A stretch of DNA of 64,000 bases from Candidatus Zhuqueibacterota bacterium (GCA_049322915.1 JBMOPW010000044.1:96001-160000); one strand, 5' to 3'; counted from the first letter of the stretch, positions 58,268-62,535 are shown. Program-made: numbers and translations. Notes: generated by a model from the letters alone, not told the origin.

Positions 58268-59644
58268 TCAATGCTTCACTTTTTCAAGGGCATTTTTAAA
58301 ATCAAAATCAGGGTCGCGTTCGGTGGTGTGGCAATTGGTACATGTGTGCTGGACAATGGGAGCCAGCATGCCTCTGGAATGTTTTTTATTGTCCATTTTT
58401 TCTGCGGTGGCCACGTGCGTTTTGCCGGTTCCGTGGCAGGCTTCGCACTGAATATTGACCATTTCCGGCGTGTCCTTGTAGGTATAAAATCCATTGAAAC
58501 GGGCAAATCCGGTGGTATGGCATGGCAGACAATTATAGTTTTGCTGCTGTTTCTCTTTTAAGAGTCGCTGGAATGCCCGCGCATGGCCGGTCTTTTGCCA
58601 TTGGTTGTACTGGGATTCGTGGCATTTTTTGCACGTCTCCGTCCCGGAGTACATGTCCATTCGCTGGTTTTGCTGGTGATTCATGTGATAGGTGAGCGTC
58701 AGTTCTTTGTCTTTGAACTCACTGATCAACGTCAGCATGTCCGGATCGTCGCTGAACTTTTCATCCAGCGCTGTCAACTTCCCCTCGTAGTCGAGTATAT
58801 TTTTATCTTTGATTATCAGACGCAGATCGCCAATGTACTGTCCCTTGTTTCCCCCGACGACAGAGATGGCGCGATTGAGATTTTCCGGCTGCATCCGCAT
58901 CACCGGGTCATGGCCGGAAAAGAACACGTCCACTTCCGGGACAGCATCAGCGAAAAGCTTCAATTCAGTGTAGCGCAAATGCGCCAGGCAAATGAGGATA
59001 TCGCATTTGTCTTTAATCCGGGCCACCACCTGCTGCGCCGCTTCAATGGGATCTCCGACGACCAGATTCGGCTCGCCGTCTCCCAGGAAAAGCTGATCGC
59101 GGTACAACATCACCCCGAAAATTCCAACGGTCAATTTGGGGATGGTCGTGTCGCCATGTTTGATTTTCTTCAATTCCTTGATGAGATAGGGGGCAAATAC
59201 CGGTTTGTTATTTTCCGCATAGAAAATATTGGCAGAGACAAACGGGAGCTTGTATTGTTTTTGCATTTCCAATAAAAAATTAACACCGTGCAGAAAATCC
59301 CGTTCGCCCGGAGTAATGGCATCGTAATTCAGGAGAGCGAATGAACGGAGGATGAATTCGGACTTGAGCTTCTCACGGCTGCCCCGTCCTCCATTGAAAT
59401 CTCCTGTTTCGAGAATGAGAACATGTTCTCCGGAGTGTGAATGCGATTTAATGTAAGTGGCTCGCCGAGCCATTCCGCCACTGCGCTGAGAGCCTCACCC
59501 GCACGGATCCAGATAGCCCACTAAATTGCCGGAGGAAAAAATATGCAGTGGATATGTCTCTGCATCGTCCATGGGATGCGCCGATGAGAAAGAAAGGGAT
59601 AGCGCGATGAGCACCAAAACGAAGGCGGCTACTTTTTCGAGCAT
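58268..59644 (-). CDS. Secreted selenoprotein: UshA-like (degenerate metallophosphoesterase) domain + tetraheme cytochrome c; 458 aa, Sec50
   Basis: In-frame TGA at 59497-59495 in GYLDPCG-U-GSQRSGGMARRAT; signal peptide from ATG 59644 (RBS GGAG); CKKCH, CLPCH, CEACH, CTNCH. Confidence 0.85.
59455..59475 (-). promoter_or_regulatory. Candidate bacterial SECIS hairpin
   Basis: Minus strand GAATGGCTC-GGC-GAGCCACTT; G-starting apical loop begins 29 nt after the UGA. Confidence 0.55.
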
Positions 59645-59868
59645 GGCATTCTCTCCATTGTCCTGATTCGTGCAGTGGTTTATGCTACGTTCTATGCACG
59701 TTGCCCTGTTTTGTTCCAACAAGCTTTTGTCAATTTTCCCGGCCATTGATTTGAAATGAATGGCGAATTGGAAATGGCTCGTGCAAAAATGCCGGTCCGG
59801 CCGGGAAATGGGGACCAGTTCAAAATTGTAACTGTGCTGAAACTTTTTTCCCGGGGGCATTATTTGTA

Positions 59869-59943: not shown

Positions 59944-62535
59944 ATGAAGAAAATTCTCTCAGTCAGCTTTTTCTTCTCGCTTTTAATAAATTCTCTCCAC
60001 GGCCAGATCGATGCCAGTCTGAAATTCCCATCCAATCTGTCGGTCTCGCCCGGCGTTGTCATTGAAATCCCGCTTCTCGTAACCACGGATTCGTTGATAT
60101 CCAGCGTGCTGATAACGCTGGATTATGATTCGACAAAAGTGATCTTTCTTGGGGCCTCGGCCGGCGCTTCATTTCCGGGAGCGACTGTGACCGGCAATGG
60201 CAGTCCGGCATTCCCGCCAACGACAACCGGGACTAATAAAAACGCACAGGCCGAAATATTCGCAGAACCATCGAATCCCGTGACCGGCGCAGAGGTTGAA
60301 ATGATCACCCTTCGCTGGCAGGTCAGCGGCTACAACGGAAATGCGCTCATTCAATTCGAGCCGGCTGAGGCGCGGACCTTCCTTGCAACGGTTCATGGGA
60401 AAATAATCAGTCAGGAAAAATTGGACGCGGGCGACGGCGTGATCACGATTGTCCCGGATACGACAGCCATTCTCAGCCTGGTCACCGATACCACGGATGT
60501 GCTGGAAAATACGCCGTTTGCAGTGACGCTCGCCGTGAGCCAGGTGGCTGACCTGCACCAATTCATCAGTACGATTTCATTTGATCCGACCATCATCCGC
60601 GTGGACTCTGTGCGGCCGGGAGATTTTCTGACCAATTCCGGCCTTAGCGCCATCACGTGGACGCCGCCTGTTCTGGATAATACCAGTGGACTGATTTCCG
60701 GAATTCAGGCGACGCGCGCCGATACTTTTGGGGTGCACGGAAGCGGCAGTCTGGCGCGGTTGTATTTCCGTTCCCTGATGCCCGGCGTATCTTCGCTGCA
60801 GTTCGTCACCACCGAATCTGCGCTACGTGACCCGGAAGCGAACGCCATTCCTGTGGCTTCATTCGCCGGCACTGACATGAATATTTACCGTGAACCGGTC
60901 GCCGAATTAGCGCTGCCGGACACATTCGCCGCGCAAAATCGGTATATCGATCTTCCGATCACAATCACCGGAGTCGGCGATGTGGACATTATCTCCGCGC
61001 TCATCGAAGTCGGGTTTGACACTGCCTGCATGAAAGGCGTCAGTGTGGTCAGCCAGAACACGCTCACTGAAGGCTGGCAGACGCCTGTCGTCAATCTGCG
61101 GAGTGAGAGCATGTATTTTGCCCTGGCCGGGGCGTCGCCGCTGGCCGGGGACGGGATTCTCGTCTACTTGCGATTTTACACGAATCCCGGGGCCGAGGAG
61201 AATGACCAATGCGAACTGCGGTTCATCGATGTTTTGCTCAATGAGGGCGACCCGACAACCATCATCCATGCCGGCAGTTTTCGGGTGAGAGGATTGCAAA
61301 TCGCCGGCAGTATTGACTACGAAGGGACCGGCCTGCCGGTGCCGTTTGTGGGATTCTCGCTGACCGGCCATCAATTATTGACCCATCAGACGGATGAAAA
61401 TGGCAATTTCAATTTTACGCGTTTGCATTACGGGAATTACGTGCTGACGCCGGAAAAGATAGGCGATCAGGGTCGCGCCATCTCTCCGTTCGATGCTGCG
61501 CTCGTTCTGCAACACGTTGTCGGTAGCAGTCAGTTGAGCCCGTACCAGAAAATTGCCGCGGACGTCACCGGGGATAGCACCGTGAGTTCGTTCGACGCGT
61601 CGTATATCATGCGGCTATCCGTGGATCTTGAAGAAAAATTTCCGGTCATGGACACCGCGGATGCATTCTGGGAGTTTGTGCCGGCCGCATTTGCCATTGA
61701 TGAAACGAACTGGTTCGCTCATCCGGATACCATTGTCTACAATCCGCTGGAGAAGGATGAATTCAATCAGAATTTTATCGGCATTATCTACGGGGATGTT
61801 TCCCAAAATTGGACAAGCCCCAGCCTGCAATCGGTTCGGGCGCAATTGCCCCCAATGCTCGCGGGCATGTCTGCCGGAGCGATTCGCCCGACCGGAATGA
61901 ACTCGTTCGCCATGCCAATTATTCTTGAATCCAGCCAGGCCATTCACTCCATTGAACTGGAAATTAGTTATCCAGCAGAACTGATGGTTGTCTCGCGGGT
62001 GTCGCAGACGGACGGTTCCGGGCCGAGCCTGATTTCGTACAGCGTCGGGAATGCGCTGTTGAAAATCGCACTGGCTTCGGCAGAGCCAATGACGCAGCAG
62101 GGTGAGGTTATCGCTGTCCATTTTCAGATGAAAGCCGGGCAGACCGAAGGGTGGGATGGAGCCATCCGCATTGAGTCGGCGAAATTGAACGACGTGCCGG
62201 TACCGCTGGTGACAGGCGCTACTGATACGCGCGAAGCCATGATTCCGACGCGACTATCGCTGGAGCAGAATTACCCCAATCCTTTCAATCAGGAGACGGT
62301 TTTCAAAGTGGATGTTCCGCTTTTGAGCTCAGGAGAAGAAGTGGCGTTGAAAATATATAATCTCACAGGCCAACTGGTGCGGACTTTGTTGAGCGGAGAA
62401 AGCCAGCCCGGAACGCGGCTCGTTCATTGGAGCGGCAACGATGAGGGGCAGCGACCAGTTTCGTCCGGAGAATATCTTGCCGTGCTGACCGCCGGCCGGC
62501 AGCGAATCGTTCAAAAATTCATCCTGCTGCGCTGA
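59944..62535 (+). CDS. Secreted scaffoldin-like protein: multiple cohesin domains, dockerin-like module, FlgD/T9SS-type C-terminal domain
   Basis: Cohesin patterns (ISFDPTII..GDFL..GSGSLARLYF; GDGILVYLRF), dockerin AADVTGDSTVSSFDASYI, LEQNYPNPFN..VSSGEY. Confidence 0.8.
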   Translation: MKKILSVSFFFSLLINSLHGQIDASLKFPSNLSVSPGVVIEIPLLVTTDSLISSVLITLDYDSTKVIFLGASAGASFPGATVTGNGSPAFPPTTTGTNKNAQAEIFAEPSNPVTGAEVEMITLRWQVSGYNGNALIQFEPAEARTFLATVHGKIISQEKLDAGDGVITIVPDTTAILSLVTDTTDVLENTPFAVTLAVSQVADLHQFISTISFDPTIIRVDSVRPGDFLTNSGLSAITWTPPVLDNTSGLISGIQATRADTFGVHGSGSLARLYFRSLMPGVSSLQFVTTESALRDPEANAIPVASFAGTDMNIYREPVAELALPDTFAAQNRYIDLPITITGVGDVDIISALIEVGFDTACMKGVSVVSQNTLTEGWQTPVVNLRSESMYFALAGASPLAGDGILVYLRFYTNPGAEENDQCELRFIDVLLNEGDPTTIIHAGSFRVRGLQIAGSIDYEGTGLPVPFVGFSLTGHQLLTHQTDENGNFNFTRLHYGNYVLTPEKIGDQGRAISPFDAALVLQHVVGSSQLSPYQKIAADVTGDSTVSSFDASYIMRLSVDLEEKFPVMDTADAFWEFVPAAFAIDETNWFAHPDTIVYNPLEKDEFNQNFIGIIYGDVSQNWTSPSLQSVRAQLPPMLAGMSAGAIRPTGMNSFAMPIILESSQAIHSIELEISYPAELMVVSRVSQTDGSGPSLISYSVGNALLKIALASAEPMTQQGEVIAVHFQMKAGQTEGWDGAIRIESAKLNDVPVPLVTGATDTREAMIPTRLSLEQNYPNPFNQETVFKVDVPLLSSGEEVALKIYNLTGQLVRTLLSGESQPGTRLVHWSGNDEGQRPVSSGEYLAVLTAGRQRIVQKFILLR

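Follow-up and report, generated by a model that had tools for sequence, protein, structure and literature searches.

A gene cut at an in-frame UGA in a Candidatus Zhuqueibacterota genome is predicted to encode an exported selenoprotein of the UshA-like, haem-carrying family NF041198

Introduction

In a stretch of 64,000 nucleotides from a Candidatus Zhuqueibacterota genome (the window, from whose first letter positions are counted), a list of open reading frames reports two pieces of coding sequence on the minus strand that are parted by a TGA. The first, 59860..59495, ends in ...GYLDPCG, and the second, 59473..58268, encodes 401 amino acids beginning MARRATY. This arrangement raises the question of whether the TGA ends one gene or is the selenocysteine (Sec, U) codon of a single longer gene and, if the latter, what the complete protein might do. 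A reading made from the sequence alone (the sequence-only reading) had proposed a hidden selenoprotein, in which a degenerate UshA-like domain with a Cys-Gly-Sec motif is fused to a tetrahaem cytochrome c.

UshA-like selenoproteins as such have been catalogued for some time. A 2008 table of selenoprotein families counts, under 'COG0737, UshA-like, CxU', 76 selenoproteins from 20 samples next to 92 homologues with Cys (Zhang & Gladyshev; PMC2398784), and the family also appears in tables of reviews from 2022 and 2026 (PMC9312934, PMC13188914), in the latter under the accession NF041198. A search of the full-text literature, with subscription journals outside its coverage, found no functional study of any family member.

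Results

When the TGA is read as U, the frame stays open over 458 codons from the ATG at 59644, a start that agrees with the aligned homologues, and the single internal TGA is codon 50 (59497-59495). This is how the gene had been described in the sequence-only reading, as split by one in-frame TGA whose read-through gives 458 residues with a signal peptide and four CxxCH motifs, and both statements were borne out, the signal peptide being judged here by eye. The N-terminus begins MLEK and runs through a hydrophobic stretch to SSA/HP, as in a Sec-type signal peptide, and AlphaFold2 modelled residues 2-20, which fall within it, as a single helix. The 401-residue downstream piece has four haem-attachment motifs and, as had also been pointed out, no export signal. 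A Pro-Cys-Gly-Sec motif (DPCGU, residues 46-50) stands after the first metallophosphatase motif and is invariant in the family alignment. The features of the locus are collected in Table 1.

Table 1. Features of the gene, its neighbours and the selenocysteine machinery. Plain coordinates refer to the window; C2, C14 and C34 are contigs of the same genome.
Feature	Coordinates	Strand	Remarks
Whole gene, UshA-like (seleno)protein NF041198	59644-58268	minus	458 codons plus TGA stop (58270-58268)
Putative GGAG ribosome-binding site	59653..59656	minus	8 nt upstream of ATG; read off the sequence
Putative signal peptide, residues 1-22	59579..59644	minus	cleavage likely after SSA; by-eye inspection
Cys48-Gly49-Sec50, Sec codon TGA 59497-59495	59495..59503	minus	C48, G49 and position 50 invariant in 31 sequences
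SECIS-type hairpin UGGCUC-GGC-GAGCCA	59458..59472	minus	within the Met58-Ala59-Arg60-Arg61-Ala62 codons; comparative pairing
Remodelled 5'-nucleotidase N-terminal (metallophosphatase-fold) domain, residues 27-320	58685..59566	minus	NF041198 profile, AlphaFold, Foldseek, PDB profile
Cytochrome c554-like tetrahaem domain, residues 321-458	58271..58684	minus	PF13435, NF041198 profile, PDB 1bvb
CxxCH 1, residues 338-342	58633-58619	minus	
CxxCH 2, residues 372-376	58531-58517	minus	
CxxCH 3, residues 400-404	58447-58433	minus	
CxxCH 4, residues 435-439	58342-58328	minus	
Tandem pair of genes for six-bladed beta-propellers (DUF5128 / NHL-type)	58194-57181 and 57184-55985	minus	downstream, same strand
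863-aa cohesin/dockerin protein with FlgD-Ig and T9SS C-terminal sorting domain	59944-62535	plus	upstream, divergent
selA	C2:24216-25583		561.6 bits
selB	directly after selA		364.6 bits
selD	C14:562220-563146 (L010)		408.4 bits
selD, second copy (contains one in-frame TGA)	C2:57472-58398 (L011)		374.4 bits
tRNA-Sec, anticodon TCA	C34		63 bits

The codon was compared across the 30 best-scoring loci from other genomes, which were picked by score and not by stop content. The aligned codon is TGA at 29 of these loci and TGC at one (L036), and the protein is conserved on both sides of it in the relatives (...GY(L/I)xPCG-U-...GG(L/V)ARRA...). The recurrence of TGA at the same codon between conserved flanks excludes chance or sequencing error. 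Homologues with Cys aligned to the UGA had been named as a check, and they exist: besides L036, Cys is found in 86 of the 96 database representatives that cover the site. A second check was for TGC or TGT in reads as a sign of sequencing error, and a 151-nt contig from a different study, which spans 59439-59589, has no difference listed at the TGA codon. A full-length contig (X1) may have given rise to the assembly and is not independent of it, and two further contigs (X2 and X3) do not reach the codon; no RNA run is among those listed as containing the locus.

Downstream of the UGA lies a hairpin with arms UGGCUC/GAGCCA and a GGC loop. It begins 22 nt after the UGA, occupying nt 26-40 counted from the U of UGA, and its loop starts with a G at the 29th nt after the UGA, just where the sequence-only reading had placed it. 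The codons that form it encode Leu-Ala-Arg-Arg-Ala in most relatives and Met-Ala-Arg-Arg-Ala in this gene. Support for the hairpin is comparative, as the 101 nt after the UGA, folded alone, gave no significant signal (z = 0.62, with 144 of 200 shuffles folding at least as well). Across 30 Sec-form sequences, 96.7% of the cells of a 7-pair helix were paired, compared to 21-44% with a slid partner. Compensatory, two-sided changes occurred in three of the seven pairs (14 cells) and three pairs never varied; the observed covariation score was reached by none of 500 shuffles, a control that ignores relatedness. The hairpin was absent at the corresponding place in the Cys form L036, and an Rfam scan of 59300-59700 returned no SECIS family, its only match being a chance snoRNA hit (E 4.4).

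The source genome (6.25 Mb in 45 contigs, 96% complete) encodes the machinery to decode such a codon. The presence of selABCD had been implied by the selenoprotein reading, and selA, selB, two copies of selD and tRNA-Sec were all found, with the selA, selB, selC and selD matches above their curated cut-offs (Table 1). These comparisons indicate that the in-frame TGA is a genuine selenocysteine codon, decoded with the downstream hairpin and the genome's own selA, selB, selC and selD. The claim of a selenoprotein gene was thus upheld by the TGA at 29 of 30 loci and by a hairpin with compensatory changes. The selD copy on C2, a contig that it shares with selA-selB at a distance of roughly 30 kb, probably encodes a Sec-containing SelD, given its one in-frame TGA. 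The copy on C14 sits in a 736-residue open frame, which suggests that it is part of a fusion protein.

Against the NCBIfam model NF041198 ('UshA_like_PCGU'), an equivalog model of 519 positions, the read-through protein scored 286.3 bits (E 4.1e-85; curated cut-off 275 bits). A six-frame search of the genome with the same model gave 278.5 bits and matched profile stretches 4-269 and 346-519, so that the UshA-like and CxxCH regions were both matched and positions 270-345 were not; the latter account for the protein, at 458 residues, being shorter than the model. As NF041198 itself spans the UshA-like and haem regions, the fusion is a feature of a known family, and the novelty that the sequence-only reading had attached to it was overrated. 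The family shares with this protein the motif P-C-G-U and both regions, and nothing essential differs. Within the family, the clade of this gene has Asn for Asp in motif I and Glu for Asp at position 79. UshA-like (seleno)protein family 2 (NF049981, CxxU) was a poor match to this protein with its CxU motif (56.5 bits against a cut-off of 140).

We therefore regard the gene, almost certainly, as that of an exported selenoprotein of the catalogued family NF041198 in which UGA codon 50 is read as Sec, an assignment made by sequence comparison. It is an ordinary, mis-annotated family member and is not unusual among its relatives. A scan of 167 genomes of the phylum with NF041198 gave matches at E <= 1e-20 in 132 of them and scores above the curated threshold in 16. 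Two unpublished genomes (G158 and G162) are part of this tally, and no individual claim depends on them. The nearest named relatives in the databases are metagenome-assembled genomes labelled candidate division KSB1.

The AlphaFold2 model, built from a 31-sequence alignment, had a mean pLDDT of 81.3, with the N-domain mostly above 90 and the haem part at 40-70. The top Foldseek matches of the N-domain were 5'-nucleotidases (3ive, 1oie and CD73; E about 1e-20), and a profile search of the PDB found venom 5'-nucleotidase (3e-34), UshA (6e-24), SoxB (2e-13) and cytochrome c554 (1bvb; 1.7e-11). A Pfam search of the protein gave no Metallophos or 5_nucleotid_C match at E <= 0.01 and returned only cytochrome families. 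In a gapped and uncertain profile alignment of residues 44-57, the Sec position falls opposite a Cys in a loop of the vertebrate and venom 5'-nucleotidases; in CD73 that loop holds a structural disulfide.

The motifs of the 5'-nucleotidases are altered in the way the sequence-only reading had spelled out (SSGNLVG, ETGD, and PGERDF for GNHEF). The His of motif I (DxH) is lost throughout the family, and its Asp, present in most members, is Asn40 in this clade, so that the site here reads N40-L-V42. Motif III, GNHE, has become G-E114-(K/R)115-D116, here E114-R115-D116. The GD of motif II (D82), the His of motif IV (H222) and the GH of motif V (H245) are kept. In the close family of 31 sequences there is almost no variation at D82, H222 or H245, and E114, which stands where the canonical motif has Asn, is conserved. 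The C-terminal substrate-binding domain is absent, the cytochrome domain occupying residues 321-458. The motif losses and the missing domain make phosphoester hydrolysis by this domain appear very unlikely, and a residual metal or anion site is possible. The earlier description of the domain as catalytically degenerate holds for phosphoester hydrolysis but not for the metal positions D82, E114, H222 and H245, which are kept or nearly invariant. The same genome holds two canonical 5'-nucleotidase paralogues (L024 and L025) with HTND(I)H or HVNDTH, GNHEF and GGHSH intact.

Escherichia coli UshA, human CD73 and the snake-venom 5'-nucleotidases (1ush, 4h2i, 5h7w) have in common with this protein the N-domain fold, the GD, the motif IV His and the GH of motif V. 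They differ in having the motif I His, the Asn-His of GNHE and a C-terminal nucleotide-binding domain; in this protein the first two are replaced, the third is missing, and a Cys-Gly-Sec loop and four haems are added. Nucleotidase-type models scored far under their cut-offs (UshA, 47.8 against 600 bits; CpdB, 55.5 against 883). The thiosulfohydrolase SoxB (TIGR04486, 2wdc) belongs to the same superfamily and is periplasmic, with sulfur chemistry carried out alongside cytochromes; this protein is not a member of that family (62.1 bits against a cut-off of 550). Unlike this protein, SoxB retains a dimanganese site, and it is not known to carry a CxU motif.

The N-domain (residues 27-320) was searched against 1.84 billion cluster representatives, giving 7604 matches at E <= 1e-3, 2105 at E <= 1e-10 and 51 at E <= 1e-30, and the best 150 were aligned. 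Residue 48 is covered by 96 of these; the other 54 start after it, and many of them are probably Sec forms cut by gene callers. Among the 96, 90 have CxC (86) or CxW (4). The C-G-W proteins (P0125, P0135, P0178 and P0231), with Trp at the Sec position, are probably cases of TGA translated by a gene caller that used another code. Two of the six representatives without the pair have the canonical His at positions 42 and 115; among the 90 with it, His occurs at position 42 in three and at position 115 in one. Of the 90, 58 retain the full set of four leftover ligand positions, 20 have lost one to three of them and 12 retain none; three or more CxxCH motifs are present in 35 and fewer than three in 55. 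From these counts across aligned sequences, the Cys/Sec pair appears as the constant feature, kept far more strictly than the metal ligands, and both ligands and haems as optional.

The haem part scored 63.4 bits with PF13435 (cytochrome c554; gathering threshold 20.8), and its four CxxCH motifs have the c554-type arrangement that it shares with Nitrosomonas cytochrome c554 (1bvb). Cytochrome c554 is a free electron carrier, whereas this domain is fused to a catalytic-looking one and was modelled poorly (pLDDT as above). At the 30 loci, 17 genes encode long forms (452-470 residues, four CxxCH) and 13 encode short forms (309-368 residues, no CxxCH). No CxxCH was found in the 151 open reading frames of at least 80 amino acids within the 1.5-kb flanks of the 30 loci. 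A maximum-likelihood tree of the N-domain (31 rows, with L033 and L055 on long branches) requires at least four changes between long and short forms, forced by well-supported branches. Judged from this tree, the haem module is accessory and has been gained or lost at least four times.

Outside the CxxCH motifs, only two His residues, H354 and the C-terminal H458, are clearly conserved for four haems, so that one haem or more may be without a His partner. All 17 complete long forms (16 relatives and this protein, codon 58271-58273) end in His, with the sequence ...K(V/I)(T/K)H-stop; the long form L056 runs off its contig, and several short forms end in G-T-(H/N/K). The terminal His of the long forms may be a distal haem ligand.

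Several database proteins join these modules to others. P0136 and P0139 (1188-1195 aa) each combine four haems and a thioredoxin-like CxxC with a pair of UshA-like domains of the CxC type. P0124 (1207 aa) has two CxC domains, four haems and a DsbA-like Pfam match, with no CxxC outside the haem motifs. P0149 combines a CxC domain with thioredoxin-type CxxC motifs, and in P0083 a CxC domain is followed by c554 and then by a DsbA/GILT-like domain without CxxC. P0072 and P0084 have AhpC/Redoxin domains and two c554-like tetrahaem modules, with no UshA-like part, and each may be a haem-driven periplasmic peroxiredoxin. As circumstantial evidence, these fusions suggest a link between electron transfer by haems and chemistry of the thiol/disulfide type.

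The gene's surroundings were compared with those of its relatives. In the window, the two DUF5128 genes (337 and 399 aa, with lipoprotein-like N-termini) lie between the selenoprotein gene and a DEAH helicase gene; in the relatives L052, L053 and L057 the helicase gene follows the selenoprotein gene directly. Genes for RmlC-like, SDR, GWxTD and DEAH helicase proteins are the conserved neighbours in relatives. Neither the relatives' flanks nor the window, with its beta-propeller genes, gave a hint of function or substrate.

Discussion

If the read-through product is made and exported, what might it do? The reading that we put first, while giving it somewhat less than an even chance of being right, is that of a thiol/selenol redox centre in the periplasm, built on a former 5'-nucleotidase and fed, in this form, by its own haem wire. 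The 5'-nucleotidase-fold domain would have given up phosphoester hydrolysis and would serve as the scaffold for a Cys48-Gly-Sec50 redox pair, which would cycle between the selenol/thiol and the selenenylsulfide. In the long form, the fused c554-like four-haem domain would carry electrons between the CGU centre and periplasmic or membrane respiratory carriers, and the protein would reduce (or oxidise) a disulfide, a polysulfide or a peroxide-type compound in the periplasm. D82, E114, H222 and H245 may still hold a metal or bind substrate, and would not be the conserved core. Identity and mechanism taken together, this account as a whole has a slightly better than even chance of being the best explanation.

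Four observations point to a thiol/selenol role: the Cys/Sec pair is retained where metal ligands have been lost, the haem module is present in some forms and missing from others, UshA-like domains are fused to thioredoxin/DsbA-like ones, and c554-like modules are fused to peroxiredoxins. The function suggested by the sequence-only reading, a thiol/selenol redox or metal-binding protein wired to its haems, appears reasonable in this light and is strengthened by the domain fusions. Close redox-active pairs are known elsewhere: Erv2 has a Cys-Gly-Cys shuttle, and thioredoxin reductase has a Gly-Cys-Sec-Gly tail. These are close Cys/Cys or Cys/Sec pairs that form a strained, reactive (selenenyl)sulfide, as is proposed here, but their folds are unrelated and they are driven by flavin and not by haem, so that the likeness is an analogy only.

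Other observations count against this mechanism. The near-invariance of D82, H222 and H245 and the conservation of E114 in the close family would also fit an important metal centre, the neighbours are silent on function, and the DsbA-like domain of P0083 is without CxxC. In addition, the 2008 survey, in the part of its discussion that deals with the major families, places the UshA-like family among the few without a recognised Cys-based redox motif and leaves it out of those that have one (PMC2398784).

The main rival, which we consider unlikely, is a metal centre ligated by Sec and Cys. Cys48 and Sec50 would be ligands of a rebuilt one- or two-metal centre together with D82, E114, H222 and H245, replacing the His of motif I, and the centre would perform haem-fed redox catalysis on a small molecule. 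Other enzymes, formate dehydrogenase and NiFeSe hydrogenase among them, bind a metal through Sec, which lends the idea precedent, and the CGU loop lies directly after motif I. The 31-sequence family conserves four positions that are ligands in the canonical enzymes, and all four are kept in 58 of the 90 wider representatives with CxC or CxW; however, CxC stays in the 12 that have lost all four positions and in the 20 more that have lost one to three, and in the clade of this gene Asn has taken the place of the motif I Asp.

A direct bond to haem is improbable. Here Sec50 or Cys48 would be the sixth ligand of one haem, as in the Cys-ligated haems of sulfur-cycle cytochromes, and the UshA-like domain would be a mere holder. 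Such a role would suit a protein with two clearly conserved non-CxxCH His residues (H354 and H458) for its four haems, but it sits badly with the 13 of 30 loci that have CGU or CGC with no haem domain and no CxxCH frame within 1.5 kb, and with the 55 of 90 CxC/CxW representatives that have fewer than three CxxCH motifs.

Still less credible is a protein that still cleaves nucleotides or phosphodiesters in the periplasm and in which Sec is an accessory residue. The 5'-nucleotidase fold and the weak matches to the UshA, CpdB and SoxB models speak for such an enzyme, but the scores of all three models are far below their cut-offs, and the catalytic His, the motif I His and the substrate-binding C-terminal domain are absent. 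The sequence-only reading had likewise held that this is not a nucleotidase, and the missing catalytic histidines and nucleotide-binding domain bear this out. Least credible of all is the TGA as a plain stop, whether from an error in sequencing, in a gene that has only recently become a pseudogene, or between two distinct genes: gene callers do cut the gene there, but the same codon is TGA in 29 of 30 other genomes with both flanks conserved, the hairpin co-varies, the tail has four haem-attachment motifs yet no signal peptide, and the contig from another study agrees at the codon.

For this genome, the result is a correction of the annotation, since the public protein (P0002) is the 401-residue tail, which has neither the signal peptide nor the Sec motif. 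The family itself, in the catalogues since 2008, is large: the N-domain alone matches 2105 cluster representatives at E <= 1e-10. In the most far-reaching reading, which we regard as doubtful, its CxC/U pseudo-5'-nucleotidase domain could provide the catalytic site of a class of periplasmic thiol/selenol oxidoreductases not described before, and the haem-fused forms would draw electrons directly from the respiratory chain through their own four haems. If it is true, disulfides, polysulfides or peroxides would be reduced in the periplasm without DsbD or thioredoxin.
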